64,000 bases of DNA from Candidatus Magasanikbacteria bacterium GW2011_GWC2_37_14 (GCA_000990355.1 LBSX01000003.1:21489-85488); one strand, 5' to 3'. Shown: positions 10,395 through 56,158, counted from the stretch's first letter. Numbers and translations are program-made. The notes: a model not told the origin generated them from the letters alone.

Positions 10395-10400
10395 ATTGTT

Positions 10401-39000: not shown

Positions 39001-41765
39001 TTTGTACCGAGTCTACTGCCAATGGCCAGTTTACTTATGACACAACACAATATCAGAATTTGGGTGGAATTGTAGAGTCTAAATGCAGTTATTTATTTAA
39101 TGAATTTGGACAAAGTAGAATAAATACTTCTGACCTTACTGGTGCCTGCGGTCCTAGTGGCGCTGTAACATCAAATTATAGCGGTGATCAATTTGGATTA
39201 AATATGTATACAACACTGTCAAAATTATTAATATATTTTGATACGGGTCTTGAAAATTTTCAAACTAGTTTTGCCTGGCTAGGTGATAAAAATAACTATG
39301 ATAGTGGTTATGTAACCAACAAAAATGTTTATACTTTTATGCAGCTTTTTGGCTGGCATGGAGTGGATAAATTTTTAACTCAAAAAGATGTAATGTCTAC
39401 TAATGGCGCAATATCTGCGCCAGACGTGGTAGTTTGGTATATAAAAGATCCAACTTGGTGGGTAGACACTTTGTTAAGATTGTCTAATACGGGTTGGGAT
39501 TTATCAAGTGATTATTTTACTACAAGAATTCCACATAGTTATAGCTATGATATAAATAAAACAATTTATTTAAATGAAGTACGAAGAATTTATTTGCCAT
39601 CTTTTGCTTTTATTGTGGACGATGGTACTCTGCATGGAGATGCTGGTGATGATATGGTTTTTACCGATGATATTTATATAGATTTTGAAAGATTAAGAAC
39701 CAATGGTTCTCTTTATGATAGATTTCAGAACCCTTGTGTTAAAGGAGGGTCATTAACCTGTATATCGGTAGATGGCCCACGAAATGCTGCTTATAGTAGA
39801 AAAGAAGTTTATGAACCTGGTGCAAGCCATTTTGTAGGCTATGAAGACGATGAAACATTTCCTTATTATACTTTTTATGGTGTAAGGGATGATGGTACAG
39901 AAGTGTATGGTATTTATTTGTTAACTCAAGAATTTTTGGATAAATATCCTGGTGCAACTAATATTTATAAAGCCATGGTCTGGAATATAGATAGAAATAA
40001 TAACGGAGATATTTGGCCAAATCAGCTGGCTGGACGTTATATTCTTACTTGGGAAAATAAAAATGGTGTTTTAACTAAGCCAGGTGAAGGTTATCCCAGT
40101 GTTGAAACCAGTCTAGCAGCAGGCAACGCTTTGTGTGAAAAGATAGTTAATGGTGTTCCAAAATGTGAAATAAACAAAGTTAGTTATCTAGGGGCTTTAA
40201 TAGAATTTATGCCTCGTTGTACAACTTTTAATTTGGTACATAAAAATCAATCTAATGATGATTATGACACCAAGAACAAAGCTTGGACCAATAGAGTTTG
40301 GATCAATGGTGCAGAAAAATATACATTTGACCGAGCAGGGAATGAATATTTTAAACGTGATGGTGCTGGGACTTCGGCTCCTTATGGCGCTACGGCTTTG
40401 TCTGAAACAGACTTTACTGATAAAACGGTTTTAAGAAAATATTGGTATCAAAATTTAGTTTTTGCTGGAGGCTTTCCTTTTGCTTGTTATGACAAGATTT
40501 TTTCTGGTGCTAATTTTGATGTTGTGCCTGTAATCGGTTTATATTTTAGTGGTAATTGGGGAGAAAAAGCGTATTGCAGTGGTTTGCTCGGGCATATTTC
40601 AGAATTAAGAACTTTTAAGCCAATTATAGAAAAGTTTTCTAGCCAAGTAAATATAAATAGTAGTCCATGGGAAAAAGGCTTTGATGGAGAAGATGCTTTG
40701 GCACGTCTTTTTGCGAAAAGTTTTGAAATAAAATTTCGTAGTCCAACTAGTACAGATGAAACAAATTTTGTTAGAGTTGTTGATGGTACTGACAATGCCG
40801 GTGATTTAGGTATTGCTAATAAATATTATAGCGATACCGAATCAGAAGTAACTCTCTTTCCACCACGCATATATTCCTTAAACCCCAACACTTGTAAAAC
40901 TGGTTTATCTAGTGTGCCGTGTACTTATGGCGAAGAAAACAATGTAACTGTGGGCAATAAAAATGGCACCAAAACAGATTATAACAAAGACGGTTCTATT
41001 GATGAAGATTTAACTGGCGACCAAATACCAGAATATAATTATGGGTTAACTAGCTTTTTGGCTTCGGTAAAGTTTTATGCTTTGGCCGACGAAAATCGCA
41101 TGCCAATCAAACGGGTGTTGGTAGAATGGGGAGACGGAAGTATAAAAGATGAGAGAGTTGGCATGTATAGAAATCATTTACCATTTTGTTCGGATGATGC
41201 CGAAACCGCTAATCGCAATTTCTGTTTTGCCAATGGTGTAAACACTCAATTAACTTGTACTACTCCCGAGGATTGCCCTGTTGAGCCTGGCACTGATTAT
41301 TATTGTCACGCTAGTGTTCCAGCAGAACCTCACTTTGGCGTAGCCAAACGCGCTTGTGAAACAAATATTTTTGAACGTGTTCATAATTATACTTGTACAG
41401 ATTTGGATGCTGGTGAAGTTTGGACTTCTACAACAGAACAACTTTCTTCAGATATTAAACAAAAATTACAGCGAATGGGTGTGGCAAATGTTCCTTTTGT
41501 TTGTATTTTTCAGCCCAAAGTTCAAGTTTTGGATAACTGGGGTTGGTGTAATGGAACATGTGGAGATTTAACTGATTATGGTGGAAATAATAATGGAATA
41601 ATAGATGGTAGTGAGTTTGAAGGTTGTTATAATAATACTGACCCAGCTTCTGGCTCTTTAGATTGCGATCCGGGAGTTTCACCTGTCACTAATGAAAAAC
41701 ATTGGACACAATATCAGGGACAAATTATTGTAGTGCCAACTAGTACTGCATCGGGGGGATATTAA
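33018..41765 (+). CDS. giant (2915 aa) Cys-rich secreted protein
   Basis: Signal peptide ending AFAKPANAQ; more than 150 Cys residues in recurring C-x-C / CxxC contexts; no cytoplasmic enzyme motifs. Confidence 0.65.
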   Translation: MFILHKTKKSLLVILISIFICVQLFGVLAFAKPANAQMDSAITAAFSGKWTWEQVGNSLLAASLGALVNGMSYFMRKMAYDTAMYVSSGGKGKGALAFKQGPAKYFENVAKDAAASAIEVFGEPFGLNLCQTPDLRVQVYLQVGLRNMYGDGGGGQTGPQPRCDWNKLSNSWSGEAFESKYGPGGRKFLAETFSNSLRVEDTDFGIALGAMGKIDRIKANAEAGAATERIEGQGYKALTGLITGNVKTPAQIIKTETEAITAKNQTDLSAKQIAGIYGSGALQIIPMGASVFINTLTGQLLNKLMSAAQGLFSDDSGEESTDGGTTNFFAQYVQDTRKAAAQAFNFLYTAVPQKQLNTYDIISEFAACPDSPSLNNCVIDTQLQQAIERAKSNKPLTIKEAMSDTEKLLNKKGFLISPRREVDNTNFNCYKKGYCYSNLQKLRKARILPIGFELAALKSDPDNPWTLEQVVNGFEDCKRDENGEAIPDVGHPFCHLIDPNWIIRSPEAHCEAKVNGPILESPDTARRQTECVDISTCLAENENGTCASPFSYCLREKNIWQIGGQSCNDYYSTCDTYFDSTGKAVSYLSRTLDFGECNLDAVGCRAYSLEQGAGGVWQNSEQIIFNNKYLSRPQTIFFNKNIDNYRCANANDEGCSAFNAVGADNSRGSLTYLKKAPDYLGCYDINTSTGSAVINWPKTKVELSYLNDRSESCKNFAGVCLPDELGCESYTSGDGGVAIPGIIGSNYCRPECVGYDTYKQEATNFSSSTFPLHFIPGKGTKCLPQEAGCEEFTNIDTVTKGGEGLEYYTDLRYCERPAANNQETYYSWQGSATEGYVLRTHKLLPIDPVEAGIISGLSGFVSSTVGANVKSTFVSSSPAYVDDSVEALEKNYNLCNATSYNVLINNPYSKEAKSADCRALYNKKGDVYYRLLAETVTISEACHPLRKTESELYVDQNISVANCTAKGGKVENSQCLRCYRGGKLDSTGNACIYWTISKSGESVSCTPTAKSCRAYTGNTGNNIKEILFNGEDIVTFEPTSTDPGALTAAAAGWLGTKQVRPESIQVGQYSLGVQGEIKYEFASNVIESNSWYELSFWAKGNTQNLNIRFYGKNATGGFEEKGEFTYNPYVQVSVPATVGAEWQEYSLGPILFKGNGEKEVRLSFSSNVTNKEYYLDNIRLTKIQDHTYLIKNSWKTVEGYDVPLTCDNEPADGLPGVALGCKAYRDSQGTPISATGFEKLCRPEAVGCQEFYDTFNTPNEITTSSYNVWCNGNVQGVCKLTSSTVELGKCEVPVGQTGCLVDKIVVPEGVAFPSGITNASVVTSTIIIPADTPIGQQIYLTNRRSFKCSESALGCTKVALESRTVLGLNNSPSLYDFSETYLKNNPANYSETLCADSLVGCQEFKSGSDITYFKNPEILGSVQCNYKTLVDIAGTKYSGWFRDGVGTCINNADKFCRADKDCGTGTEAKCNTKDPVPCYENYVQAGSNYGVWSNSSDNYKGLVGMCPAAQNGCTELIDPADTSQNNPEGKPYYIIFNRDVEKRTGECEGKVSLKDGCVLFDRTDLPNKIYNVAETYKNSENLTDNKYGSVTPSTTVSALEPKLKANLILKVERDRQCSEWLQCKSYAVNYNEKGQPTNLCEEFKRCTQLNDRGECISWVPENDELYSQTLTEDFYVGRSTNWYAEDFSGYSLLNKYQIGSYVYLKMGLPNEPTFLAHTVDDRTRPEGAAGCTVALGAQPDSKDGDICGLANGGRCWQGNCVYPLEGSFTEEAVKATFASYLEQGSCKAYPEKESPFEVYQATEDFGDTGAPKQLFGVTSTISGSKFRWNYPGRKDSFGKVNICQDYKDTDGNNYKCSCGYVKVTYKNNVTDYWPATNKIESILPKGVCSGGSLDGIPCDPDYGDKNQCGDVLENPGQCSRITERTQRNGQTGFCLEYDLSRPLGKANTDFKKQTYACLTWLPVEVSASGIDTYNYYEKAGYHPGIDANASLGQVFCTESTANGQFTYDTTQYQNLGGIVESKCSYLFNEFGQSRINTSDLTGACGPSGAVTSNYSGDQFGLNMYTTLSKLLIYFDTGLENFQTSFAWLGDKNNYDSGYVTNKNVYTFMQLFGWHGVDKFLTQKDVMSTNGAISAPDVVVWYIKDPTWWVDTLLRLSNTGWDLSSDYFTTRIPHSYSYDINKTIYLNEVRRIYLPSFAFIVDDGTLHGDAGDDMVFTDDIYIDFERLRTNGSLYDRFQNPCVKGGSLTCISVDGPRNAAYSRKEVYEPGASHFVGYEDDETFPYYTFYGVRDDGTEVYGIYLLTQEFLDKYPGATNIYKAMVWNIDRNNNGDIWPNQLAGRYILTWENKNGVLTKPGEGYPSVETSLAAGNALCEKIVNGVPKCEINKVSYLGALIEFMPRCTTFNLVHKNQSNDDYDTKNKAWTNRVWINGAEKYTFDRAGNEYFKRDGAGTSAPYGATALSETDFTDKTVLRKYWYQNLVFAGGFPFACYDKIFSGANFDVVPVIGLYFSGNWGEKAYCSGLLGHISELRTFKPIIEKFSSQVNINSSPWEKGFDGEDALARLFAKSFEIKFRSPTSTDETNFVRVVDGTDNAGDLGIANKYYSDTESEVTLFPPRIYSLNPNTCKTGLSSVPCTYGEENNVTVGNKNGTKTDYNKDGSIDEDLTGDQIPEYNYGLTSFLASVKFYALADENRMPIKRVLVEWGDGSIKDERVGMYRNHLPFCSDDAETANRNFCFANGVNTQLTCTTPEDCPVEPGTDYYCHASVPAEPHFGVAKRACETNIFERVHNYTCTDLDAGEVWTSTTEQLSSDIKQKLQRMGVANVPFVCIFQPKVQVLDNWGWCNGTCGDLTDYGGNNNGIIDGSEFEGCYNNTDPASGSLDCDPGVSPVTNEKHWTQYQGQIIVVPTSTASGGY

Positions 41766-42156: not shown

Positions 42157-42162
42157 GTAAAA

Positions 42163-42888: not shown

Positions 42889-43149
42889 GGTGCGCCTCCT
42901 AGCGCGTTGTTGTTGCCCAGAATAGGGATTTAGTAAATCCACATTCTGGGCAAGCACTAGCAAGGCATAACCATGGGCCTCTTAATTCCACCACACCCTA
43001 AACCACAAGGGTTCAGGGTAAAATTTTTAAAGAGCATTATCCATTTATAGTATAGAACATTAAAACCTTGTCTGTCAAGACAAGGGAAACGATTATAGCA
43101 TATTTTAGCCTTTTTGTCAAGGGTATGCGGTGGATAAACTGTGCACCGT

Positions 43150-43227
43150 TGTCATGCTGAACTCGTTTCAGCATCCCTTACTTATTTAATATTGCCAGGG
43201 GATCCTGAAATAAATTCAGGATGACAG
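43150..43227. repeat. repeat family A copy
   Basis: tgtcatgctgaactcgtttcagcat ... gatcctgaaataaattcaggatgaca. Confidence 0.7.
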
Positions 43228-43311: not shown

Positions 43312-43406
43312 CTGTCATGCTGAATGTAATTGTCATGCTGAACTTGTTTCAGCATCCCGTGAGATCCTGAAATAAATTCAGGATGACAGCCAAGTTCAGG
43401 ATGACA
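43312..43406. repeat. repeat family A copy with extra half-sites (ctgtcatgctgaa; ttcaggatgaca x2)
   Basis: Immediately upstream of ORF 43420, whose ATG lies in a degenerate half-site (gtcATGctcaaattc). Confidence 0.7.
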
Positions 43407-43419: not shown

Positions 43420-46400
43420 ATGCTCAAATTCTTTAAACAAAAAAATAAGCAGAAATATCTTTTTGTGCTAAGCGCGGCATTTTTGCTTACGCTAGTTTTG
43501 GTTTTGCCTGTCTCTGCTCAATGGGATCCTGCTGGTTTTCAAAATAGTGTCATGAGTATAATTTCGGATTTGTTTTTGGGCTTTGGTAAATTTTTTATTG
43601 GTAGTGCAATTTTCTTTTTAAAGTTTTTTATTGCCCTAGCGCAATACAACAATTATTTAGATGTACCCACAGTACAGATTGGTTGGGTAATGGTTCGCGA
43701 TGTGGCCAATATGTTTTTTGTGGTTGCTTTGCTCGTGATTGCTTTTGGCACAATTTTGGGGTTAGAACAATATCAATGGAATAAAACTTTGGTCAAACTT
43801 ATTTTGGCCGCTGTGTTTATTAATTTTAGTAATTTAATTTGTGGAATTTTTATCGACATTGCCCATGTCTTTACCATTACTTTTGTAAATGCGATTGCTG
43901 GGGCCGCGGGTGGCAATTTAATCAACATGTTTAAATTGTCCGAGATTTACAAAATGGTTACTGGTGGTGCTACACCACAACCTGGTACTAATTTATCTTT
44001 AGAAGTTTTGATTGGTTCTTTTGCGGCTTTTATTTTTTCTTTAATGGTCGCCTTAATTATGGGTTTTTATGCCCTAATTATGCTTTTCCGTGTAGTAGCT
44101 TTGTGGGTCTTAATTATTCTTTCGCCTTTGGCTTTTATTTTTCAAGTTTTACCCGAAACAGAGGCCCGAGCCAAAGAATGGTGGAAACAATTTGGTAATT
44201 ATGTGTTGGTCGCACCAGTAATGGTTTTCTTTATGTGGTTGGCTTTTGCTACTCTGGGTACTGGTGATGTAGTCACCACACTAGATTTAAAATTAAATGA
44301 ACAAACATTATCCGATGTAGTGGCTTCGCAAGCAACGAACAAAGCCGAAGGTCAGGCCGAATATTCTGGCCCCAATGCTTTGTCCCTAAATGCTGTTACT
44401 ACTTGGGAAAATCTTGCCAGCTTTTTAATCCCTATGGTTTTGCTCTATGTAGGCATACAAAAAGTTCAAGAACTTTCGGTGGCAGGTGGCAGTATGTTGG
44501 CTGGGGCACTTGATACAGTCAAGAAAGTAGCCACTGTGGCTTCGGGTTTTGCTGCCGGCCGGTGGTTGGTTGGCAAAGGTGCTGAAGGTGCCAAAGCCGT
44601 GGCCGGTGGGGTTGGTTTGGGCTTGGTAAAAGGCGCGGGCTATGTGGTTGGTGCCGAAAGAATTGGTAATTACTTTAAACGACAATTACAAGGTTTTCAT
44701 GCTTGGCGGCAAGATTCTGGTTTAAGACCTATACAAAAAGAAGTAGATGAAGAAGTAGCGAAAAAAGATGCCGATGGCAAGGTGATGACAGATGCAGATG
44801 GAAAAGTCATAATGGAAAAAACTGGACGCAAACGTATGATTTACGAACAAGAAGACTTTTTAAATACAGAAACTGGTCAAATGGAAAAGCGTTTCAAAAT
44901 GGAAAAAGTGGCTCCAAAATTTGCTCCTTTACAAAAAATATTTTTTGCTGGAGCAGCCAGAGACACTGCTTCTCGTAAAAAATTAGAAAAAACTACAAAC
45001 TTTGCCAAAAATCGTACCGAATTGTTGGACAAATTAACCAGTGGTGTGCCAACTGCTTGGATGATGGGTGGTACAGAAAAGATCGATGCCTTAGACAGAA
45101 TTGAACAAGGTATGGTTTTGGGTATGAAAGCTCGTTCTGCTGCCAAAACCGAAGAATTTCATGCTATGGGCGAGGCCATGGTTTTGCAAGCGCCACGTTA
45201 CAAAGTAGAAGGTTGGGGTAAAATGACTGGTAAAGATCCAACAATTGCCGAACAAGCAGCCAAGCATTCACAAGCCGCAGTAGTCAACAAAGCCATGGTA
45301 GAAGCCATTAAATCTGGGGCCAAAGCCAGATATATCAAAGGCGCTTTTTCTTTTGGTCCATTTGATCCGGGGAAAGCAACCGGTGTTGATGCTCAAGGCA
45401 ATGCTGTGTATGACCAAGGCCGGAATTTAATACATCAAGCCAATATTTTGGAACACCGAAAAGAAGAAAGTGAATCAATTGTTAGTAATATTAAATTATT
45501 AGATGTTGCCGAAGAATCTGTAGAAGGCAAAGAAGAGCTTGAAAAAGCATTAAAGCGTTTGAAAGCAGAAGGTAGAAGTAAATTACCAGAAATATTACAA
45601 GCAATGCATAATCCTGCTGCCAGGGCGGCTTTTGCCAAAGAGGTTGAAGAATATACCAAAGAAAAAGTTACTGGCGCAGCTCATAATAAATTGTCTGACC
45701 AAGCGGGTAGTATGCATAATTGGGCAGTAAATGGTTTTGATACACCAAGCACAGCTATCAAAAAAGTAGTCGCAGCAGCTGGTGAACCTTGGAAAGGAGA
45801 AGAAAAAGAAAAGGCTGCTTCTATGAGTACAGACGCTTTCCAACATTTATTGTCAGTAGCCATGAATGGCAAACTAGATGATGGACAACGTGGCACAACT
45901 ATGGCTTTAACCGAATTTTTGGTAAAGAATGGCTGGTTAGATGATATGTTGTCGCGGATGGTTAATAAAACTAGAGAACTAGTTGCTGGTAATATTACCA
46001 ATCCAGATGAAGCTAAAGAAGTAGAGGAAATGGCCAAGTGGATGTGTGATGAAAATGGTTGGGGTACATTACAAAGAGACAAGGATACGGGTAAAATTAC
46101 TGGGGTAGACATTGTGAATGAATCTTCCAAAGAAAGAACCAATGATTTACAAAGATTTTTTGCTTCGGGAATGGACAAAACTTCTTTTCAATCAGAAAGT
46201 GCAGTTTTATTGCATAAAAAAATTATGGAAGATAAAAGTGGTGAAGCAGTTGATATAGAAGATGCGGCCAAAGATTTAGCCGAAAGAATGAGAGGCGACA
46301 ATGGCAAGAGTATGGCAGAATATGAAACTGATTACCAGACATATGGAGTAGAAACTTTAAATTGGACACCAGAACGTATTAAACAACAATTTTCTACTTT

Positions 46401-47283
46401 TGAAGATGCTTTTGTAAAAGGTGCAAAAGATGCTCAAACTGCAGTAACTGGTTTTGTAGAAAGATTGAATGAACATGCTGAAGAACAAGAGTACTTAACA
46501 GAATTAAAACCATTGGGTATCGATACTACTCATATTGATGACACTGGTCATACTTTTCATAATCAACGTCGTGGTTATGCTCATGGTCTTTTGGCGCCCG
46601 ATGCCATGGCCAATATGGAAGGTGACATGGTAAAACAAGATGGCGCTACCAAAATGAGAAAACACAAGAGTCATGCCATTGGTTATATGGAAGAAGATAC
46701 TGGTACTTTGCACCGTTTAGAAGGTGATCGGGTGGCAACCATGTATTCGGGTGTAGACAGTAAACAAAAAAATGAGCTTCAGGATGTTCGTATTCAGCGT
46801 CATTTGTTAAAGAACGCGGCTGATGAAGAATTTATCAAGGAAAGTGGAAATTTGATTGTTGGTTCAGCTGATTCTGTTTTGGTTAAAAAGAAATTTAAAG
46901 GTGATAAAGAGGCCGCGGCTATTGATACAGCGCGTGATTGGGCCGTGTTATTAAATAATGGTGGTGAAAAAGCTTTGATGGGATTTTTGGGTACTCACTC
47001 GGGAACTGGCTACGAGGGCGGGGTAAGTGGCAAATTTAATTTAAAACTTTTTGGGGAAGATATTACCAGCGCTGATCAGTTGGTTGAGTGGATTAATAAG
47101 ACTATGGCAGAAGAAGAAAAAAAGAGAGCGGCTGGAGTTTCCAAGAGAGATAAAAGAGATCATCGTAAAATAAAACAAGTTGATTTAGCCTCGATAATTA
47201 GGGGTGTCAAAGCCGCAGCTGCTCAAGCTGTTGCCACTCCAGAAGGAAATGTGGTAGATGAAACCTTGGGTGATGGAGTATAG
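43420..47283 (+). CDS. large polytopic membrane protein, VirB6/TrbL-like N-terminal domain plus a long hydrophilic C-terminal region (putative T4SS component)
   Basis: Signal plus at least 7 TM segments in the first 330 aa; lies in a cluster with VirB3-like and VirB4; assignment by architecture only. Confidence 0.45.
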   Translation: MLKFFKQKNKQKYLFVLSAAFLLTLVLVLPVSAQWDPAGFQNSVMSIISDLFLGFGKFFIGSAIFFLKFFIALAQYNNYLDVPTVQIGWVMVRDVANMFFVVALLVIAFGTILGLEQYQWNKTLVKLILAAVFINFSNLICGIFIDIAHVFTITFVNAIAGAAGGNLINMFKLSEIYKMVTGGATPQPGTNLSLEVLIGSFAAFIFSLMVALIMGFYALIMLFRVVALWVLIILSPLAFIFQVLPETEARAKEWWKQFGNYVLVAPVMVFFMWLAFATLGTGDVVTTLDLKLNEQTLSDVVASQATNKAEGQAEYSGPNALSLNAVTTWENLASFLIPMVLLYVGIQKVQELSVAGGSMLAGALDTVKKVATVASGFAAGRWLVGKGAEGAKAVAGGVGLGLVKGAGYVVGAERIGNYFKRQLQGFHAWRQDSGLRPIQKEVDEEVAKKDADGKVMTDADGKVIMEKTGRKRMIYEQEDFLNTETGQMEKRFKMEKVAPKFAPLQKIFFAGAARDTASRKKLEKTTNFAKNRTELLDKLTSGVPTAWMMGGTEKIDALDRIEQGMVLGMKARSAAKTEEFHAMGEAMVLQAPRYKVEGWGKMTGKDPTIAEQAAKHSQAAVVNKAMVEAIKSGAKARYIKGAFSFGPFDPGKATGVDAQGNAVYDQGRNLIHQANILEHRKEESESIVSNIKLLDVAEESVEGKEELEKALKRLKAEGRSKLPEILQAMHNPAARAAFAKEVEEYTKEKVTGAAHNKLSDQAGSMHNWAVNGFDTPSTAIKKVVAAAGEPWKGEEKEKAASMSTDAFQHLLSVAMNGKLDDGQRGTTMALTEFLVKNGWLDDMLSRMVNKTRELVAGNITNPDEAKEVEEMAKWMCDENGWGTLQRDKDTGKITGVDIVNESSKERTNDLQRFFASGMDKTSFQSESAVLLHKKIMEDKSGEAVDIEDAAKDLAERMRGDNGKSMAEYETDYQTYGVETLNWTPERIKQQFSTFEDAFVKGAKDAQTAVTGFVERLNEHAEEQEYLTELKPLGIDTTHIDDTGHTFHNQRRGYAHGLLAPDAMANMEGDMVKQDGATKMRKHKSHAIGYMEEDTGTLHRLEGDRVATMYSGVDSKQKNELQDVRIQRHLLKNAADEEFIKESGNLIVGSADSVLVKKKFKGDKEAAAIDTARDWAVLLNNGGEKALMGFLGTHSGTGYEGGVSGKFNLKLFGEDITSADQLVEWINKTMAEEEKKRAAGVSKRDKRDHRKIKQVDLASIIRGVKAAAAQAVATPEGNVVDETLGDGV

Positions 47284-47301
47284 TTTTGTAAATACTAGCT
47301 T

Positions 47302-48648
47302 ATGTTGGATAAAAATAATTTAAAAGTAAAAAATTGGTTGCAAAATAAAGAAGCTTTAAAAGAAACTGTTGATTTGGCCAATGTTTTTTTTGTTGGCAAA
47401 TGGCAAGAAGAAAGTGTTTTGGACTGGCTTAATAAATTAAATCAGCATTTAGAAGATTATAATCCCCTAAAAATTGCTAGTGATCTGGATACGGCTTTTG
47501 TAAATACAGTTTTAAATCTTTTAGATTATAATTTACTCAGCGAAATTAAAGATGTCTTAACAAAATTAATTGCCAACAAAACCGAGGCTGAGGCGCAAAA
47601 ATTAGATGAGTTAATTAAACAATTTGAACCAGATTTTTCCAATATTGCCGCTGTTTTACTTTGTTCCTTGCCAACCGATACTAGCGTGGCTTTAGAAGAA
47701 ATAGACTCAAAAGATCTCACCCCTGGTTTTTATCGGTTTTTGGGTCAATCAGTATTGGGCCACGAACATCAAGTAAGTTTTGAAGCTTTTAAAATTTTGG
47801 AAAGTAGTGTTTTTAACAATCAAAAAAACACTACCAAAGACAAATTGATTTTTATTGCAGTGATATTTTTGGCATATAACCAATTTAAAAGTTTAAGTTA
47901 TACCCAACAAATAGAATTATTACTCAGTTATTTTTGGTCAGCAATTGAGGTTGGTGTGCCTGTTGCCGAAATTTTTGCAGAGCAACTGCTTACTGAAAAT
48001 TCTTTGGTTGAATATATTAATACGAGTATTTTGTGGGGCAAGACAATTTTGGAAAGTAAAGAAGTAATTTTTATAGATAAAAATAAGCAAAACTTTTTAG
48101 TGGGGGATCTGGTGATTAAATATCTAATAATGGCGGGCAATGACATTTTGCTTGAAGATAAACAAAATAGTTATTTAGAAAAAATTATTAAAGAAAATAA
48201 TTTAAATAGTGATAAAAAAGAAAAATTAATTAGTTTACTTTCTTTTTATTTGCGTTTAAGCACCTGTAGTTTAGTAGACTATAATGGTTTGTTGCACGAG
48301 CAAGGCCTGGTAAAAACACCTTTTGATTGGCAAGAATTAATTAATAATGGTATCTCTGATTTACAAGCAGAAGAAATAAAAAAATACTTTTCACAGTTAC
48401 ACCAATCTTTGAGCATTAAAATTGAAATAGTTAATTCTTTACAAACCATGTCAAACTGGCGCGAGGAGCCTTATTTTGAAAGAATGCTTGCCCTTAGCCA
48501 ATCATATGAAGATGTTTGCGGGTTGTATTTTGGTCCTTTGGTTTATTTTGATGGCGAAAAAGATAAATGGGATTTTTATGTAGAATTACCCAATGGTTTA
48601 AAAGAAAAGTTTGAAGAATCATTTAAAAAATATGGAATTAAAGAATAA
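47302..48648 (+). CDS. hypothetical protein, paralogous to the next ORF
   Basis: Shared segment LLSYFWSAIEVGVPVAEIFAEQLL vs LLKNYFYTAIVAGVPVKIILDRFL. Confidence 0.5.
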   Translation: MLDKNNLKVKNWLQNKEALKETVDLANVFFVGKWQEESVLDWLNKLNQHLEDYNPLKIASDLDTAFVNTVLNLLDYNLLSEIKDVLTKLIANKTEAEAQKLDELIKQFEPDFSNIAAVLLCSLPTDTSVALEEIDSKDLTPGFYRFLGQSVLGHEHQVSFEAFKILESSVFNNQKNTTKDKLIFIAVIFLAYNQFKSLSYTQQIELLLSYFWSAIEVGVPVAEIFAEQLLTENSLVEYINTSILWGKTILESKEVIFIDKNKQNFLVGDLVIKYLIMAGNDILLEDKQNSYLEKIIKENNLNSDKKEKLISLLSFYLRLSTCSLVDYNGLLHEQGLVKTPFDWQELINNGISDLQAEEIKKYFSQLHQSLSIKIEIVNSLQTMSNWREEPYFERMLALSQSYEDVCGLYFGPLVYFDGEKDKWDFYVELPNGLKEKFEESFKKYGIKE

Positions 48649-49585
48649 TTTTTGGTTTAATTATCAGTTACAAAATTACCACGAAGTTGTTGATTCTTTT
48701 GGTTTGTTAGAAAACAAACGTTTGGAAATTATTTCAAAAATTGGCAAGTTGGGTGAAAGGATTTTTTTATATGTTGATTTTATTTCTAAAAAAATATTAC
48801 AACACCAAATTAAACCCGAAGTAAGTTTTGAAACCAATCTTATTAAATATTTGGATTTAGGATTATTAAATAATTTTATTAACGATCCTTTAAACAAAGA
48901 AAATCGCGATTTGTTTTCCGAACAGCTTTTGCTGGTTTATTCGGCTTTGGGCGGGGCTTTGCCTATAAATGCTTATTCGGTAGAAGAAATGTTACAAATC
49001 AAATCAGCCGAATATTTATATTATGATGATAATATTTTTGTGGGTACTTTACGTTATATTTTTAGTGATTTGGATGTATTTTATAAATATTTACCAAGTA
49101 TTAGCGACTATTTGTTTAGAGATGGCCAAAATTCTATTAAACAAAACTTTGATTGGCACACAGCTTTTATTTATTCGGCTTTAATTAATTTTTGCTGGTC
49201 AAGTTTTTGGTTTTTAAAAAGTGAAGAACAAGAAAATTTGCTTAAAAATTATTTTTATACGGCCATTGTTGCCGGAGTGCCGGTAAAAATTATTTTAGAT
49301 CGTTTTTTGGCTGTGGGCACTGCAGAAGAAAAAGTACGTTGTCAACAATTGTTTGCCAATGGTCTTGAAAATAATTTAGAAGAAGTTCCTTTGAATGGAG
49401 ATTTTACCGAGTGGAAAAAATTATTAGCTATTATCCGTGGTTTTTCGGTGCGAATTAAGGGTTCAAATTCTGGTTTTGAACAAGAAGAATTTTTAAAGGA
49501 ATTTTATCAAAATCAACCAGGGAGAGACGTTTATCGCGGTTGGCTACGAGAAGTTTTGAATATAGTGTTTAGTTTGGAAAAGTAG
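48611..49585 (+). CDS. hypothetical protein, paralogue of 47302..48648
   Basis: See previous entry; overlaps it by 38 nt (the start may be the ATG at 48632). Confidence 0.5.
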   Translation: MKNHLKNMELKNNFWFNYQLQNYHEVVDSFGLLENKRLEIISKIGKLGERIFLYVDFISKKILQHQIKPEVSFETNLIKYLDLGLLNNFINDPLNKENRDLFSEQLLLVYSALGGALPINAYSVEEMLQIKSAEYLYYDDNIFVGTLRYIFSDLDVFYKYLPSISDYLFRDGQNSIKQNFDWHTAFIYSALINFCWSSFWFLKSEEQENLLKNYFYTAIVAGVPVKIILDRFLAVGTAEEKVRCQQLFANGLENNLEEVPLNGDFTEWKKLLAIIRGFSVRIKGSNSGFEQEEFLKEFYQNQPGRDVYRGWLREVLNIVFSLEK

Positions 49586-49589
49586 TACA

Positions 49590-50062
49590 ATTATCAGTTT
49601 TCAATTTACAATTTACAATAAATTTTCAATTAAATAATTTTCAATGAATAAAAGTTCTAACAACTATGATTTGGAAGAACGTACAGCAGTATTTAGTGGA
49701 GAGATAATTAAATTTTGTAGAAGTCTAAAAGAAGATAATGTTACTAGACCGTTGATAAATCAGTTAGTGCGTTCTGGAACTAGTATCGGGGCAAATTATT
49801 GTGAAGCTAATAACGCGAGTTCAAAAAAGGATTTTCAAAATAAAATATTTATTTGTAAAAAAGAGGCACAAGAGACCAAATATTGGTTAAGGACACTTTC
49901 TACCTGTTGTCCAGAAGAAGTAGAAAATTTAAGGAAACTTTGGAAGGAAACACAAGAATTATTGATGATATTTCAAAAAATTGTGAATACTTTAAGAAGT
50001 AAATGATAATTGATAAATTGAAAATTTATTGTAAATTGTAAAATGGTTATTGTAAATTAAAC
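49590..50062. repeat. family C palindromic element split by a four-helix-bundle gene (left arm 49590-49646, right arm 50005-50062)
   Basis: The arms match the empty copies C1, C2 and C4; the 4HB ATG sits in the conserved centre aattttcaATG. Confidence 0.6.
49644..50006 (+). CDS. four-helix-bundle protein (23S rRNA-IVS protein family)
   Basis: LVRSGTSIGANYCEANNASSKKDFQNKIFICKKEAQETKYWLRTL. Confidence 0.7.
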   Translation: MNKSSNNYDLEERTAVFSGEIIKFCRSLKEDNVTRPLINQLVRSGTSIGANYCEANNASSKKDFQNKIFICKKEAQETKYWLRTLSTCCPEEVENLRKLWKETQELLMIFQKIVNTLRSK

Positions 50063-50066
50063 AATT

Positions 50067-51281
50067 ATGAGTAATTCTCCCACAATTCTAGTAAAGAAAG
50101 CTGACGGCACCCAGGTTCGCATGACCATGGAGGAGTTTAAGGTATACAAAAGTGGCGTTAATTCAGATAACAAAAAGCAAATAGCCTTCGTCCCGAGCTC
50201 AGGCCGAGGGGCAGATAGCATAAAAAAAATTGAGACAGCGGTTAAGACAGAAATAAAACATGAAGAGAAATTAGAAAATTTAGAAACTGAGAAATTAGTT
50301 GTTAACGACTTGCCAATGGTGTTGAATACCGAAGCTTTAACAACTACTGCACCAGTAAAAGAGGTGTTTGTAAATGAAGCGGAATATAAATCATTAAACC
50401 ATGAAAACATTAAAGCTTTAAAACAAGTTGAGCCTGTAAAAATAAAACAGCCAGTAATAAAGCCAGAAATAGTAAAAATAAAAAATTGGAAAGAGGATGA
50501 TTATAAATCTTTGCTGGATAGCCCAGAAACAGAAAAAGTGGCTCCAGTTGCTAGTGCGCCAGTAAACAAAAATGAACAATTAGCAGAAAAGATTATTTCG
50601 GCTCTGCCTTTTAAAGTTAATAATGACATTTTAGGTCGTTTGCGTTCTTTGGTACTGTCTCGAGTAAAAGAAATTCGTGATGATGACCAAGTAGTAAGTT
50701 ATGCCACTCGTGCCAAAGAAAATGGGGGACTGGGTTTGGCCGAATTAGCTGCTAGTGATTTGGTTGCTTTAATTAATAAATATTTACCAAGCAAATCAAA
50801 ATTAACCAAGACTGTTTTAGACGACGAAGAATCAGAAGCACCGCAAACTGCTACCAAAATGGCACCCGCCAAAGTCTATTTTCCCCAAACAGAAACCAAA
50901 AAGCCAGAAGTTGTGGGCAAACCAATAATGCAAGATGTAACGCCTCCACCGCCGGTAGAAAAGAGAAGTATGGGCCCTGTAGAAGAGTTTAAATTTATCA
51001 CTGTGGTAGATTTTCGTCGTTTGGCTACTAAACCAGAAGAGTGTACCAGAATTTTAAATGAAAAATTAATTGCTTTAAAAGCAGAATCATATTTAATTTA
51101 TAGCCAAGCAGTGGCTGGCTGGTTTGCTAGTCCATTGTATAGTAAATATTGCGAAGTTTTTAAAAGAAGTTTAAACGAAAAACAAAAAATAAGTGATTTA
51201 TTGTTAATTAAAAATAAAGAAGAATTAACTTTGGAAGAATTTAAAGCCCTATTGGAATTTAGTAGGGGGTTGAATGGTTAG
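50067..51281 (+). CDS. Lys-rich hypothetical protein
   Basis: ORF only; contains the 20-mer cccgagctcaggccgagggg (50192-50211), the reverse complement of a motif in prfB. Confidence 0.45.
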   Translation: MSNSPTILVKKADGTQVRMTMEEFKVYKSGVNSDNKKQIAFVPSSGRGADSIKKIETAVKTEIKHEEKLENLETEKLVVNDLPMVLNTEALTTTAPVKEVFVNEAEYKSLNHENIKALKQVEPVKIKQPVIKPEIVKIKNWKEDDYKSLLDSPETEKVAPVASAPVNKNEQLAEKIISALPFKVNNDILGRLRSLVLSRVKEIRDDDQVVSYATRAKENGGLGLAELAASDLVALINKYLPSKSKLTKTVLDDEESEAPQTATKMAPAKVYFPQTETKKPEVVGKPIMQDVTPPPPVEKRSMGPVEEFKFITVVDFRRLATKPEECTRILNEKLIALKAESYLIYSQAVAGWFASPLYSKYCEVFKRSLNEKQKISDLLLIKNKEELTLEEFKALLEFSRGLNG

Positions 51282-51285
51282 TGTC

Positions 51286-51342
51286 TGTCATGCTGAACTA
51301 GTTTCAGCATCCCAGGAGATCCTGAAATAAATTCAGGATGAC
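51286..51342. repeat. repeat family A copy
   Basis: ctgtcatgctgaactagtttcagcatcccaggagatcctgaaataaattcaggatgaca. Confidence 0.65.
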
Positions 51343-51350
51343 AAAACAAT

Positions 51351-51782
51351 ATGCAACAATTTGTAGTACCACAATTTATTGATGTTGAAGATAAAATTTT
51401 TGGGCCGATTACTACCCGTCAATTTTTAATTTTGTTGGCAGCAGGCTTGCTGATTTTTGTATTCTATAAATTAACAGATTTTGCTTTGTTTGTAACTCTT
51501 ACGGCAGTGTTGGGCGGGTTGGCACTGGTATTTGCTTTTGTAAAAATAAATGGCCAGCCTTTTCATTATTTTTTGTTAAATTTATTACAAACTTTGCGCA
51601 AACCCTCTTTAAGGGTCTGGAAGAAAAATTTGTCTGATGAAGAATTAAATTTTTTACGTAAATTAAATACCGAGAAAGCACCTGAAAAAATTGCTAGAAA
51701 AGAAGTAAAATCTGGGCATATCCATGATTTAGCATTACTCGTTAATACTGGTGGTTTTTATAAACCAGAGGATGAATTGTAA
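51351..51782 (+). CDS. PrgI/VirB3-like small membrane protein of type IV secretion systems
   Basis: MQQFVVPQFIDVEDKIFGPITTRQFLILL followed by 2 TM segments; directly upstream of VirB4. Confidence 0.5.
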   Translation: MQQFVVPQFIDVEDKIFGPITTRQFLILLAAGLLIFVFYKLTDFALFVTLTAVLGGLALVFAFVKINGQPFHYFLLNLLQTLRKPSLRVWKKNLSDEELNFLRKLNTEKAPEKIARKEVKSGHIHDLALLVNTGGFYKPEDEL

Positions 51783-51787
51783 TTATC

Positions 51788-51925
51788 TGTCATCCTGAAT
51801 TTATTTCAGGATCTCCTGTTAGCATTAAAAGTGTTGGGGATGCTGAAATGGTACTTGTCCTGAATTTATTTCAGGATTCAGCATGACAATTGCATTCAGG
51901 ATGACAACCAAGTTCAGCATGACAA
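51788..51925. repeat. array of family A half-sites (tgtcatcctgaa-tttat-ttcaggat; atgctgaa; gtcctgaatttatttcaggat; ttcagcatgaca x2; ttcaggatgaca)
   Basis: Six or more copies of the 12-nt half-site TGTCATSCTGAA or its reverse complement within 140 bp, upstream of the VirB4 genes. Confidence 0.65.
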
Positions 51926-51959
51926 ATAGAACGTTTTGTGTTAAAATGACAAGTGTAAT

Positions 51960-52649
51960 ATGGCCAAGAAACAAGAAATGAAAGGAAGAGTAAATAATAA
52001 GCCTTCGACCCAGGCTTATTTGCCTATTGCCGAAATTAGAGACGGGGTAGTTATCTTAAAAGATGGCACTTTGCGTAGTGTGCTAATGGTTTCTAGTATA
52101 AATTTTGCTTTAAAATCCGAAGATGAACAAAATGCTTTGGTATCGGCTTATGTGGGTTTTTTAAATTCATTGGATTTTCCTTTACAAATATTAATGCAGT
52201 CGCGACGTTTGCAAATAAAACCATATTTAGAAAAATTAGCCAAAATAGAACGTGAACAAACCAATGAATTGTTGCAAGTTCAAGTAGCCGATTACAAGGC
52301 TTTTATCGAAGAATTTGTAGAAATTGGGCAAATTATGACCAAGAGATTTTATGTAGTAGTGCCTTATGACCCCTTATCCAACAACAAAAAAAGCTTTTGG
52401 TCTAGATTTAAAGAAGTTTTAAAACCCGCAATTACTTTGCGCCTAAAAGATGAAAGGTTTAAAAAAAGAATAGAAGATTTGGAAATGCGTTTGCGTCAAG
52501 TAAGGAGCGGCTTAGAAAGTATGGGTTTGCAAATTGTACAACTAGACACCCAATCATTAATAGAATTATTTTATTCCACTTACAACCCCGATACTGCTTT
52601 TAGTGAGCAGTTGGGCAAAATAGGTGATATCCAAATAGAAAATATTTAA
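51960..52649 (+). CDS. VirB4/TraE-family N-terminal domain, encoded as a separate ORF
   Basis: YLPIAEIRDGVVILKDGTLRSVLMVSSINFALKSEDEQ, typical of the VirB4 N-terminus; stop TAA at 52647-52649 followed by ATG at 52651. Confidence 0.55.
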   Translation: MAKKQEMKGRVNNKPSTQAYLPIAEIRDGVVILKDGTLRSVLMVSSINFALKSEDEQNALVSAYVGFLNSLDFPLQILMQSRRLQIKPYLEKLAKIEREQTNELLQVQVADYKAFIEEFVEIGQIMTKRFYVVVPYDPLSNNKKSFWSRFKEVLKPAITLRLKDERFKKRIEDLEMRLRQVRSGLESMGLQIVQLDTQSLIELFYSTYNPDTAFSEQLGKIGDIQIENI

Positions 52650-52650
52650 T

Positions 52651-54519
52651 ATGGCCTTTAAGCCAATGCAAAATTTAAAGATTGATAATACTTTGAGTGG
52701 AGAATCAGTAAAAGAAAAAGCAAAAAAACAAATTGCCGAGGAAATTGTAAGTTTGGAAGAAGAAAAAGTTTATCGTCGCGGTACCGTGGCAATTCGGGAT
52801 TTAATTTCTCCTGCTGGTTTGCGCATCGAAAATAATTATATTCAATTGGGTGATGTATTTTTGCGCACTATTTTTGTAATCACTTATCCACGTTATATTG
52901 CCGTAGGTTGGGGCATGCCGATTTTAAATTTAAACATTACCATGGATGTTTCCATGTTTTTTTATCCAGTGCCTTCACCAATTATTTTAAAACAACTAAA
53001 GAAAAAAGTAGGTGCTTTGGAAGCACAAATTACTGGTGATGCCGAAAAAGGCGCTGCTCGCGACCCAATTCACGAAACTGCCCTTCGCGATATTGAACAA
53101 TTGCGTGATGATTTGACCCAAGGAGTGGAACATTTTTTTCAATTTTCTTTTTATGTAACTGTTTATGCCAAAGATTTAGACGAACTTAACCGGACTACCG
53201 AAGATGTAGAAAATATTTTTGGTTCCAAATTAATTTATAGTAAGCACGTGTTGTATCAAGCCGAACAAGGTTTTACTTCTACTTTGCCCCTCGGCATCGA
53301 CGAATTATCGATTGCTTTCAACATGAATTCTTCGCCAATTGCGGCTTCTTTTCCTTTTATTTCTTCGGAATTAACTTCGGATGATGGAATTTTGTATGGC
53401 ATTAATCGTCATAATAATAGTTTGATTATCTTTGATCGTTTTAGTTTACAAAATGCCAATATGGCAGTGTTTGCTACATCGGGTGCTGGCAAATCTTATA
53501 CCGTAAAGCTAGAAGTATTGCGCAGTTTAATGATGGGTGTGGATATTATTATTATTGATCCGGAAATGGAATATCAGCATTTGTGCGAAGCAGTGGGAGG
53601 TACTTATGTAAATATTTCTTTGGCTGCCGAAAGCAAGGTTAATCCTTTTGATTTACCACGACCAGTGGGTCAGCAGATTTCTACCGAAGATGTAATTCGT
53701 AGTGCCATTATTACCTTAAAAGGCTTAATCCGCATAATGTTCGGCAGTCTCAATGTTACTGAAGATTCCATTATGGATCGGGCTTTAAAAGAAACTTATG
53801 CCAAAAAAGATATTACGCCAGATTCTGATTTGGGTAGTATTGAACCGCCAATTATGCAGGATTTGCTAGAAGTTTTAGAAGGCATGCAAGGGGCAGAAAA
53901 TTTGGTGCTACGTTTAAGAAAATTTACCGAGGGTACTTTTTCGGGATTGTTCAATTCGCCCACCAATGTAAATATGAATAATCAGTTGGTGGTATTTTCG
54001 GTGCGTGATTTGGAAGACGAACTTCGCGCTATGGCAATTTACAATCTTATCAACTATGTTTGGAATATAGTTCGCAGTGAGCGCAAAAAAAGAATTTTAA
54101 TAATTGATGAAGCTTGGTGGTTAATGACTCACGAAGATAGTGCCAAATTTATTTATGCTTTGGTAAAACGTTGTCGCAAATATTATTTGGGGGTTACCAC
54201 TATTACCCAAGATGTGAGCGACTTTTTGCGTTCTCCCTATGGTCAGTCTATTGTAACCAATTCGGCTTTACAACTTTTATTGCGTCAAACACCAGCGGCA
54301 ATTGATATTGTACAAAAAACTTTTATGCTTACCGAAGGCGAAAAATATTTATTATTGGAAAGTGCAGTGGGTGAAGGAATATTTTTTGCTGGTTTAAAAC
54401 ATGCCGCGATTAAAGTAATTGCTTCTTATACCGAAGATCAGTTGGTAACTTCGGATCCCAAGCAATTAATGGAAATAGAAAAAGCTAAAAAAGAATACGA
54501 AGAACAAATGCTTAAATAA
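52651..54519 (+). CDS. VirB4/TrsE-family type IV secretion ATPase (C-terminal part, Walker A/B)
   Basis: Walker A ATSGAGKSYTV, Walker B ILIIDEAWWL, ITQDVSDF; the upstream part RGTVAIRDLISPAGLRIENNYIQLGDVFLRTIFVITYPRYI is typical. Confidence 0.75.
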   Translation: MAFKPMQNLKIDNTLSGESVKEKAKKQIAEEIVSLEEEKVYRRGTVAIRDLISPAGLRIENNYIQLGDVFLRTIFVITYPRYIAVGWGMPILNLNITMDVSMFFYPVPSPIILKQLKKKVGALEAQITGDAEKGAARDPIHETALRDIEQLRDDLTQGVEHFFQFSFYVTVYAKDLDELNRTTEDVENIFGSKLIYSKHVLYQAEQGFTSTLPLGIDELSIAFNMNSSPIAASFPFISSELTSDDGILYGINRHNNSLIIFDRFSLQNANMAVFATSGAGKSYTVKLEVLRSLMMGVDIIIIDPEMEYQHLCEAVGGTYVNISLAAESKVNPFDLPRPVGQQISTEDVIRSAIITLKGLIRIMFGSLNVTEDSIMDRALKETYAKKDITPDSDLGSIEPPIMQDLLEVLEGMQGAENLVLRLRKFTEGTFSGLFNSPTNVNMNNQLVVFSVRDLEDELRAMAIYNLINYVWNIVRSERKKRILIIDEAWWLMTHEDSAKFIYALVKRCRKYYLGVTTITQDVSDFLRSPYGQSIVTNSALQLLLRQTPAAIDIVQKTFMLTEGEKYLLLESAVGEGIFFAGLKHAAIKVIASYTEDQLVTSDPKQLMEIEKAKKEYEEQMLK

Positions 54520-54525
54520 CTAACT

Positions 54526-54618
54526 GTCATCCTGACCGAGTGTAGCAACGAGTGGAGGGATCTCTTAAACAATGTACAAGAGATTCCTCGACTTCGCTTC
54601 GCTACGCTCGGAATGACA
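54526..54618. repeat. inverted pair of family B repeats (gtcatcctgaccgag ... ggagggatctc and gagattcctcgacttcgcttcgctacgctcggaatgaca)
   Basis: The two copies face each other across a 15-nt spacer. Confidence 0.6.
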
Positions 54619-54623
54619 AATTT

Positions 54624-55199
54624 ATGTATATGCTTACACTACGTCAAAGAATTTTTGCTTACATTGGTATTTTTGTTGGTTTGGTGGTGGTTTTTTTGTT
54701 GGCTTATTTATTTATCAACAATAGTGGCGGGGTACGTGATTATGTAACAGAAAAAGGCACAAAAATTTTAAATATTAAACCCACAGGAGAGCAAACACCG
54801 GTGGCTACTACTACTCCAAACGTGGTAAAAGCCGACCCGCTTACTCCCGAGATTTATACCAAACAATTGTCACGAATTTTTGTCGAGCGTTTTAGTAGTT
54901 ATTCCAACCAAAATGATAATCTTCATATTAGCGAAGTAATTCCACTTTGTACCGAAACAATGGTTGCTTGGCTAAAGACACAAAATTTAACTAGTAGTTT
55001 GGATTATGCGGGGGTAACTACCAGAGTAATTGCCAGTAATGTTAGTAAAATTACTGCTACCTCGGCTACCGTGGAAATTCAAGTACAACAAGAAATAGAA
55101 AATAAAGCGGGAAAACAAGTGGTACAAAAAGATGGGCGTGTGGAACTTTTAAAAGTAGGCAATGATTGGAAAATAGATGGGTTGTATTGGCAAAAATAG
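54624..55199 (+). CDS. membrane-anchored hypothetical protein (start chosen downstream of the repeat)
   Basis: N-terminal TM IFAYIGIFVGLVVVFLLAYLFI; last gene of the T4SS-like cluster. Confidence 0.45.
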   Translation: MYMLTLRQRIFAYIGIFVGLVVVFLLAYLFINNSGGVRDYVTEKGTKILNIKPTGEQTPVATTTPNVVKADPLTPEIYTKQLSRIFVERFSSYSNQNDNLHISEVIPLCTETMVAWLKTQNLTSSLDYAGVTTRVIASNVSKITATSATVEIQVQQEIENKAGKQVVQKDGRVELLKVGNDWKIDGLYWQK

Positions 55200-55200: not shown

Positions 55201-55312
55201 TTAATTTTCAGTAATCAATTTTCAATTTACAAAAAATTTTCAATTAAATAATTTTCAATGTTATTGATAATTGAACATTGTAAATTTATTGAAAATTGTG
55301 AATTGTAAATTG
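55201..55312. repeat. repeat family C copy
   Basis: tttaattttcagtaatcaattttcaatttacaaaaaatt ... aattgtgaattgtaaattgg. Confidence 0.65.
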
Positions 55313-55319: not shown

Positions 55320-55967
55320 ATGCTACATGGATTAATTAGTTTAATTAAAGATTATATTTTTCCCGTATATTGTCTAGGTTGCCAAACAGAAGGTGAGTGG
55401 GTTTGTAAAAATTGTTATAACAACATAAACGCGCAGAGCGTTTTTTGTTTTACAAATTTAGAGGATAATTTTGTTAATTTATTAATTTCGCCTTATCTTT
55501 ATCAAGAAAATGAACTGATCGGCAAAATTATTCAATATTTTAAATATCATTATGCAGAAGAATTAGAGCAGGTAATCTTTAATTTAATAAATAAATTTTT
55601 ATTAGAAAATAAAAATTTATTTGCAGAGATTGATTGTGTTATACCTGTGCCATTACATGCTCGGCGTTTGGCAGAGCGGGGATTTAACCAAGCCGAAGTT
55701 ATTGCTAAAATTTTAGGTGCTATTTTGAATAAGCCAGTTTTAAATAATTTGGGGCGTGTTCGATATACCAAGCAACAAGCCAAACTAAACAAATTGGCTA
55801 GGCAAGAAAATGTGGCTAGTGCTTTTGTGGTTAATGGTAAAATAAGCAATAATATTTTAATTGTTGATGATGTGTTTACTACAGGTGCGACTACAAAAGA
55901 ATGTGCCAAAGTGCTAAAACAAGCCGGAGCTAAAAAAATTATTGCCTTTACTTTGGCACGAGGTTAA
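55320..55967 (+). CDS. comFC: ComFC-family phosphoribosyltransferase-domain protein
   Basis: N-terminal C-x2-C...C-x2-C zinc motif; PRTase motif ILIVDDVFTTGAT. Confidence 0.75.
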   Translation: MLHGLISLIKDYIFPVYCLGCQTEGEWVCKNCYNNINAQSVFCFTNLEDNFVNLLISPYLYQENELIGKIIQYFKYHYAEELEQVIFNLINKFLLENKNLFAEIDCVIPVPLHARRLAERGFNQAEVIAKILGAILNKPVLNNLGRVRYTKQQAKLNKLARQENVASAFVVNGKISNNILIVDDVFTTGATTKECAKVLKQAGAKKIIAFTLARG

Positions 55968-56105: not shown

Positions 56106-56158
56106 CCTTCGCGCGCCGAAGCGCGCTTCGGCGGACAAAGTCCGCTAAATTAGACTTT

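Follow-up and report, generated by a model that had tools for sequence, protein, structure and literature searches.

A type IV secretion system (T4SS) of the chromosomal, vertically inherited kind found in Patescibacteria (the candidate phyla radiation, CPR) is, with a probability of about 0.88, encoded at positions 43420-55199 of the 64-kb stretch of Candidatus Magasanikbacteria bacterium GW2011_GWC2_37_14 DNA analysed here (hereafter the window), in the form that it takes in Magasanikbacteria, Uhrbacteria and Falkowbacteria. The segment holds nine co-directional open reading frames (ORFs) with short spacers, and the product of one of them, a 1287-amino acid (aa) VirB6-like protein, is 100% identical to US42_C0003G0047 of that organism. 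NCBI taxonomy places the organism within the Patescibacteria group, and the Magasanikbacteria/Uhrbacteria/Falkowbacteria group to which it belongs is, we take it, the class ABY1 of GTDB. The cluster is the kind of system already described in 2025 (PMC12102498), so that it is not surprising and adds nothing categorical; the modest additions to what is known are a VirB8-like gene that is near-universal in the relatives examined, the uncharacterised protein families K404 and H, and a Cys-rich giant protein frequently encoded upstream. The initial annotation, made from the sequence, had proposed a conjugation-like or host-interaction apparatus. A non-conjugative system involved in host interaction agrees with published work (PMC12102498, PMC12857230); the system is not conjugative.

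The cluster is embedded in a housekeeping backbone (NusA, YidC, a peptide-chain release factor with PCRF and RF-1 domains, Sua5, KsgA, ComF and two tRNA-Ser) of low GC content, about 36%, with nearly all genes on the + strand. KsgA is encoded upstream of it, ComF and tRNA-Ser downstream, and its GC content resembles that of the remainder of the window. Relatives were obtained by a VirB4 scan of species-representative genomes, which yielded 80 loci with a VirB4 identity of 66-85%. Those with informative labels are mostly Magasanikbacteria, Uhrbacteria, Falkowbacteria, Buchananbacteria or plain Patescibacteria/Parcubacteria group; many other labels are uninformative or evidently wrong. Gene presence was scored by tblastn of the window proteins against the 80 loci, and ORF starts in the relatives were set by a simple start-codon rule. 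Comparative synteny, a check that the initial annotation had suggested, revealed a conserved gene order that is always VirB6-(H)-K404-PrgI-TrsD-VirB4-VirB8-like-ComF, with matches to TrsD in 76 loci, PrgI in 74, K404 in 72, the VirB8-like protein in 71, ComF in 68 and VirB6 in 62. Median identities amount to 74% for VirB4, 66% for TrsD and 59% for PrgI, and to 30-40% for the VirB6 N-domain, the VirB8-like protein, K404 and ComF. As far as these sequences tell, the arrangement is fixed in the chromosome across the class. The ORFs listed in the initial annotation are all present at the coordinates given there, all on the + strand; its inventory omitted the conserved comF and a four-helix-bundle gene (49644-50006).

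The VirB4 ATPase scores 343 bits against the NCBIfam CD1110-family model (cutoff 325) and matches the TraG P-loop family PF19044 (E=2.7e-29) and the VirB4 C-domain in PDB 4AG5 (E=3.8e-50). Its motifs are intact, Walker A (ATSGAGKS) at residue 275 and Walker B (ILIIDE) at residue 482, and its closest curated families, CD1110 and Mbov_0397, are types of the monoderm mating-pair formation class FATA (MPF-FATA). VirB4 had been annotated initially as one gene; the ATPase is there, but the canonical protein is actually divided between 51960-52649 and 52651-54519. The first of these ORFs matches TrsD/TraD (E=1.5e-7, positions 21-197 of 201) and also the N-terminal parts of VirB4 models, and a PDB search with its product returned nothing meaningful. 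Because the junction reads TAA-T-ATG, TrsD and VirB4 form a clean two-gene arrangement and not a frameshift. They are likewise separate ORFs (about 228 and 625 aa) in 76 of the 80 relatives, VirB4 being split without exception, and a frameshifted VirB4 pseudogene was rejected, since the split is kept in those 76 relatives with variable spacing.

Two further assignments, which the initial annotation had singled out as decisive, withstood the profile searches. The PrgI/VirB3-like protein of ORF 51351, with transmembrane (TM) helices at residues 20-38 and 46-64, scores above the curated Pfam threshold. The protein of ORF 43420 has, by hydropathy, a signal-like segment and about seven hydrophobic helices in its first 350 residues, followed by about 900 soluble residues that the positive-inside rule would place in the cytoplasm; this C-terminal extension varies among the relatives. 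Pfam TrbL matches the whole protein with E=0.0039 and its N-domain with E=8e-4, over 174 of the 215 model positions. TrbL is the sole Pfam family that recurs among the orthologues (10 of 44 N-domains, best E=6.2e-6), and database homologues carry precomputed PF04610/PF19590 matches; a PDB sequence search with the protein gave nothing meaningful. We accept it as a probable VirB6/TrbL homologue on the combined family-level evidence, the window sequence by itself scoring below the curated cutoff.

The last gene of the cluster had been described as encoding a membrane-anchored protein. The anchored protein is present; its likeness to VirB8 had been overlooked. A GTG start at 54552 reads through a repeat resembling repetitive extragenic palindromic elements (REP-like), and the true start is the ATG at 54624, which yields the recorded protein of 191 aa. 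A second repeat type (..CGCTTCGCTACGCTCGGGATGACA), found at 42114-42154 and 54578-54618, is the source of the false N-terminus. The AlphaFold2 model, calculated from an 86-sequence alignment with a pLDDT (per-residue confidence) of 87, comprises a TM helix, a disordered linker and an alpha+beta cone. A PDB search with this family retrieved nothing meaningful, and the protein is called VirB8-like in a structural sense only, according to the predicted model.

In 68 of the 80 relatives comF comes next after the VirB8-like gene. In the 65 loci where the spacing was measured, the two ORFs as called overlap in 21 (by 31 nucleotides (nt) in 17 of them) and are separated by a gap of 0-4 nt in 17 more. 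Such close or overlapping ORFs suggest that comF and the VirB8-like gene are probably co-transcribed. In the window the two genes are parted by 120 nt carrying an AT-rich palindromic element.

Between VirB6 and PrgI lie the orphan proteins that the initial annotation had called lineage-specific and hypothetical, a description that suits the H family and K404, for which no Pfam, PDB-sequence or solved-fold match was found. K404, the Lys-rich protein of that annotation, indeed contains 12.4% Lys and lacks a TM segment. In its predicted structure three confident modules, a beta-hairpin plus helix (residues 1-32) and two helical domains (168-240 and 300-404), are connected by disordered linkers rich in Lys, Glu and Pro. 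A K404 profile run against 1.84 billion representatives matched 2,554 clusters at E<=1e-3, so K404 would be a sizeable unnamed family, as judged by profile similarity. The paralogy proposed for the two H proteins was also borne out. BLASTP aligns H1 and H2 over 61 aa only (E=5e-5), and a hidden Markov model (HMM) of H1 orthologues from which the window sequences were excluded scores H2 at E=3.4e-27, the reverse search giving 3.6e-14. The H2 start at 48632 (an alternative lies at 48611) agrees with the gene call on L001, an independent contig. With an iterated profile, H-family genes were located between VirB6 and K404 in about 47 of the related loci, mostly in single copy; the profile might have drifted, but its matches occupy one position in nearly all loci, always in the VirB6-to-K404 interval. 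The tandem duplication seen in the window recurs in three relatives (L007, L008 and L077). In a Falkowbacteria locus (L081:168-1898) the H and K404 domains are apparently fused in a single 576-aa ORF. Relatives of the Uhrbacteria type (e.g. L061:4112-6010) lack the H gene, and their K404 homologues, of 545-632 aa, contain the middle domain twice.

Two giant secreted proteins encoded before the cluster had been tied to it initially. The link holds for the nearer one (33018-41765), a Cys-rich protein with no Pfam match: in 15 relatives homologous C-terminal regions are encoded immediately before the VirB6-like gene, and a large ORF of some kind occupies that place in 35 of the 45 loci with sufficient upstream sequence. 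It does not hold for the farther one (13105-24993, with fn3 repeats), which has housekeeping genes between itself and the cluster, has only three weak matches in the relatives and shows no linkage there. The features of the region are collected in Table 1.

Table 1. Genes and repeats of the T4SS cluster and of its surroundings, with window coordinates
Feature	Coordinates	Strand	Basis
Extended VirB6/TrbL-like polytopic membrane protein, 1287 aa (probable)	43420..47283	+	family-level TrbL signal, hydropathy
H1, soluble orphan of the H family, 448 aa	47302..48648	+	no TM segment; no Pfam or PDB match
H2, tandem paralogue of H1, 317 aa	48632..49585	+	HMM against H1 orthologues
Four-helix-bundle ('23S rRNA intervening sequence', '23S rRNA IVP') protein, 120 aa, passenger insert	49644..50006	+	TIGR02436 E=3.8e-23, PF05635
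K404, Lys-rich soluble orphan, 404 aa, conserved cluster component	50067..51281	+	
PrgI/VirB3-like two-TM protein, 143 aa	51351..51782	+	PF12666 39.4 bits, gathering score 27
TrsD-like protein, VirB4 N-terminal domain as a gene of its own, 229 aa	51960..52649	+	NF041427
VirB4 ATPase, C-terminal two thirds of canonical VirB4, 622 aa	52651..54519	+	NF045971, PF19044, PDB 4AG5
VirB8-like (by predicted structure) bitopic protein, 191 aa: N-terminal TM helix, linker, extracytoplasmic NTF2-like domain	54624..55199	+	
ComF (ComFC-type) competence protein, conserved downstream neighbour	55320..55967	+	TIGR00201 E=5.1e-29
Giant Cys-rich surface protein, 2915 aa, N-terminal signal/anchor; associated gene, not core T4SS	33018..41765	+	TM 11-29, 3.5% Cys
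REP-like double-hairpin intergenic repeat	51286..51343	.	further copies 43150-43226, 43331-43388, 51788-51845, 51858-51931

Pfam scans, which covered all window ORFs of at least 100 aa except obviously spurious overlapping ones, detected no relaxase, VirD4/coupling protein or VirB11 in the 64 kb, as the initial annotation had stated. The only VirD4-family signals in the window are matches with E>0.05 to the P-loop of VirB4 itself, and no VirB9 or VirB10 was found in the same scans. A screen of small ORFs by hydropathy for a VirB2-like pilin retrieved from the window only a DUF4870 protein and PrgI as proteins with two TM helices, with no pilin Pfam match.

Several points weigh against the identification of the cluster as a Patescibacteria T4SS. 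The window yielded neither a VirB2-like pilin nor a VirB1-like hydrolase or a coupling protein. The TrbL score of the VirB6-like protein, 19.7 bits, lies under the Pfam gathering score of 25.9, and the profile of its N-domain, run against the PDB, matched no solved VirB6. The putative place of VirB4 in the Patescibacteria clade has indirect support only, from the MPF-FATA types among its best curated families and the 66-85% identity with the relatives, and all functional statements are made by analogy, the sole experimental data coming from a different class, the Saccharimonadia. As to the pilin, a VirB2-like gene near virB4 is an optional feature of Patescibacteria T4SSs according to the recent survey (PMC12102498).

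In that survey (Quinonero-Coronel et al. 2025, PMC12102498) the VirB4 proteins of Patescibacteria form a clade within the monoderm class MPF-FATA, TrsD is the accessory gene encountered most often, homologues of PrgI and VirB6 occur and relaxases are rare; VirB8 homologues are nearly confined to ABY1, and ksgA is found nearby, as is comF in ABY1. The cluster described here resembles these systems in being chromosomal, in having VirB4 with a separate TrsD-like gene, PrgI/VirB3, a probable VirB6 and a VirB8-like protein (VirB8 homologues being reported mainly from ABY1), in having no relaxase nearby, and in the presence of comF and ksgA in the neighbourhood, as in ABY1 and other classes. About 50 VirB8 homologues are reported there from HMM searches, whereas here a VirB8-like protein is matched in 71 of 80 relatives and is accompanied by a structure model. 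We found no description of the K404 and H families, or of the frequent comF overlap, in the accessible text of that survey. Unlike in the T4SS of Saccharimonadia, no VirB2-like pilin array or peptidoglycan hydrolase adjoins virB4 here.

The cluster shares with MPF-FATA systems (TrsC-TrsD-TrsE of pGO1/pSK41, PrgH-PrgI-PrgJ-PrgL of pCF10, CD1110 of Clostridioides difficile CTn2) a monoderm setting without VirB7, VirB9 and VirB10, a VirB4 above the CD1110-family cutoff, the split of TrsD and VirB4 as in pGO1, and a member of the PrgI family. Its bitopic protein with a predicted VirB8 fold recalls PrgL, TraM and TcpC. It differs from them in that the window is devoid of a relaxase, a coupling protein, an origin of transfer (oriT), an adhesin (PrgB) and a cell-wall hydrolase (PrgK/TrsG), in that the cluster is chromosomally fixed across a class, and in that it adds an extension of about 900 aa to VirB6 and the extra orphan subunits K404 and H. 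Rickettsiales possess extended VirB6 proteins and tandem virB6 paralogues. PMC12857230 gives an account of a class of 'extended VirB6' proteins, and PMC7648143 one of very long VirB6-4 proteins in Anaplasma. The protein of the window is built like the extended VirB6 of Rickettsiales, in that a polytopic domain of at least five helices precedes a hydrophilic C-terminal domain that is very large and varies in length and sequence, but it comes from an unrelated lineage with a monoderm envelope and is present in a single copy rather than as tandem paralogues. No sequence similarity between its extension and the Rickettsiales proteins was found in Pfam and PDB sequence searches.

Taking the Patescibacteria T4SS as the preferred identification, a working scheme can be proposed. 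By analogy with monoderm MPF-FATA and R388-type T4SSs, VirB6, PrgI and the VirB8-like protein together would form a cytoplasmic-membrane translocon. PrgI would hold the VirB4 hexamer, which would power assembly and transport, and TrsD would provide in trans the N-domain that VirB4 lacks. The VirB6 tail of about 900 aa, together with H and K404, may constitute a lineage-specific cytoplasmic platform. On the other side of the membrane the NTF2 domain of the VirB8-like protein would be the only sizeable extracytoplasmic part, possibly joined by the Cys-rich giant protein encoded upstream. Through such an apparatus macromolecules would be moved between the epibiont and its host cell, and the conserved and often overlapping comF makes the uptake or handling of nucleic acids at least as likely as the export of effectors.

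What is moved, and in which direction, has to be considered in the light of the Saccharibacterium S. epibionticum, which cannot grow epibiotically without its T4SS genes (PMC12857230, PMC11665869). Among Patescibacteria T4SSs, only that of strain ML1 has been examined genetically (Wang et al. 2023, cited in PMC12857230). In this organism comEC is dispensable and the role of the T4SS is stated to be unknown; delivery of effectors and uptake of DNA or nucleotides have been put forward (PMC12857230, PMC11665869).

One possible but doubtful alternative is a machine dedicated to the import of DNA or nucleotides, akin to the ComB T4SS of Helicobacter pylori or the archaeal Ced system, which would work with ComF to acquire DNA from the host or the environment in an organism unable to make nucleotides. 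The position of comF after the VirB8-like gene in most relatives, with an overlap or a gap of at most 4 nt in over half of the measured loci, speaks for it, as do a weak match of VirB4 to the archaeal DNA-import ATPase CedB (E=1.5e-11, far below the cutoff), the lack of a relaxase or coupling protein nearby and the fact that the idea was raised for Saccharibacteria (PMC11665869). The cluster is also like ComB and Ced in combining a VirB4-family ATPase, a minimal membrane translocon, the absence of a relaxase and a link to a competence protein (here ComF). However, gene adjacency is not function, and no ComEC, DprA, ComB- or Ced-specific subunits were detected in the window. The similarity to CedB (43.7 bits against a cutoff of 700) concerns the generic ATPase core only, and import is put forward here as a hypothesis. 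Moreover, deletion of comEC in S. epibionticum ends competence and not viability, and yet the T4SS is essential (PMC12857230); therefore, the essential role in that organism is not ComEC-dependent uptake. A more elaborate version, in which the ABY1-type T4SS would be a comF-coupled nucleic-acid import machine with the coupling protein replaced by the platform of VirB6 tail, H and K404, we regard as improbable.

The export of effectors or other proteins into or onto the host bacterium, with the adjacent giant Cys-rich protein acting as adhesin or cargo, is likewise a possible but doubtful alternative. That giant secreted protein is encoded immediately upstream in the window, homologues being placed likewise in 15 relatives; effector delivery has been speculated upon for Saccharibacteria (PMC11665869); and the C-terminal extension of VirB6 is variable, as would be expected of a lineage-specific adaptor. 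Yet the giant protein has its own signal/anchor and is thus probably handled by Sec, the window is devoid of a coupling protein, the normal recruiter of effectors, and no candidate effector-immunity pairs were seen.

A remnant or transfer module of an integrative and conjugative element (ICE) inserted beside tRNA-Ser, to which the tRNA-Ser genes (56019-56246), the large serine recombinase nearby (62393-63718) and the ICE and plasmid types among the closest curated families of VirB4 (CD1110 and Mbov_0397) could point, is very improbable and was rejected on conserved synteny, because the T4SS-comF-tRNA-Ser arrangement is conserved in the relatives, the scans of the window detected neither a relaxase nor a coupling protein and the segment bearing the recombinase is a separate insertion across the tRNAs without counterpart in the relatives (no MmeI match in the 80 loci), the GC content of the cluster being, besides, like that of the rest of the window. 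A search of the window for an att-like copy of the tRNA-Ser 3' end was negative.

The spacers of the cluster contain several kinds of repeats and inserts. The REP-like double hairpin (TGTCATGCTGAAC..GTTTCAGCATCC...GATCCTGAAATAAATTCAGGATGACA) recurs in them and also at 10325-10393, and opposed copies create perfect 31-nt inverted repeats around prgI (51313-51343 and 51788-51818). AT-rich palindromic elements of the 'TTTACAATT' type occupy the spacers at 49589-50058, 27389-27494, 31152-31263 and 55203-55311. In the first of these the arms lie 360 nt apart and enclose the four-helix-bundle gene as if it were inside the palindrome. This gene is bracketed by 55-nt inverted AT-rich repeats and has a homologue in only two of the 80 relatives, at other positions; on these grounds (prevalence, position and flanking repeats) it was rejected as a part of the T4SS. 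A second four-helix-bundle gene is located at 25838-26194.

Between the giant protein and virB6 there is a GC-rich island (42125-43224, core 42210-42960) of 60-67% GC against 36% in the genome. Its minus-strand ORF (42310-42888, 192 aa) encodes a lipoprotein-like signal (..LFVPAC/GGG) and has no Pfam match. An independent Logan contig of 1,100 nt equals the island at 100% identity and has REP-like repeats at both ends. Either the island was inserted recently from a foreign source, or the sequence was joined there through repeats.

Downstream of comF, the tRNA-Ser at 56019-56107 has the anticodon ACU (loop TT-ACT-AA, with A at position 34) and stands beside a normal tRNA-Ser(GCU) at 56159-56246. 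Transfer RNAs with A34 other than Arg(ACG) are unusual in bacteria. The ACU tRNA-Ser also occurs in the relatives L004, L007 and L031, and most relatives have Ser(UGA) and Ser(GCU) after comF. Past the pair, the segment 56609-63718 encodes an MmeI-type restriction-modification enzyme, a helicase, a T5orf172 protein and, on the minus strand, the large serine recombinase. It is a probable strain-specific island, of which MmeI was the sole gene queried against the 80 related loci. At the other end of the window, an IS200/Y1 transposase gene (6667-7116) is followed by a match to the Rfam 'Acido-Lenti-1' RNA (7164-7210; 38.8 bits, gathering score 37). The 1.5 kb at 8852-10400 lack a convincing ORF, those present overlapping one another on both strands, and lie in a part of the window with raised GC content (0.435 for 8001-10000); no Rfam match at the gathering threshold was obtained there.

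No T4SS had been reported as essential for the growth of its bearer before that of Patescibacteria (PMC12857230, PMC11665869). The comparison presented here contributes to the parts list of the ABY1-type system a near-universal subunit with a predicted VirB8 fold, mostly missed by HMM searches, and two uncharacterised families, K404 and H, that are linked to virB4 as tightly as PrgI. The VirB8-fold subunit, K404, H and the overlap with comF are concrete candidates for interaction modelling.

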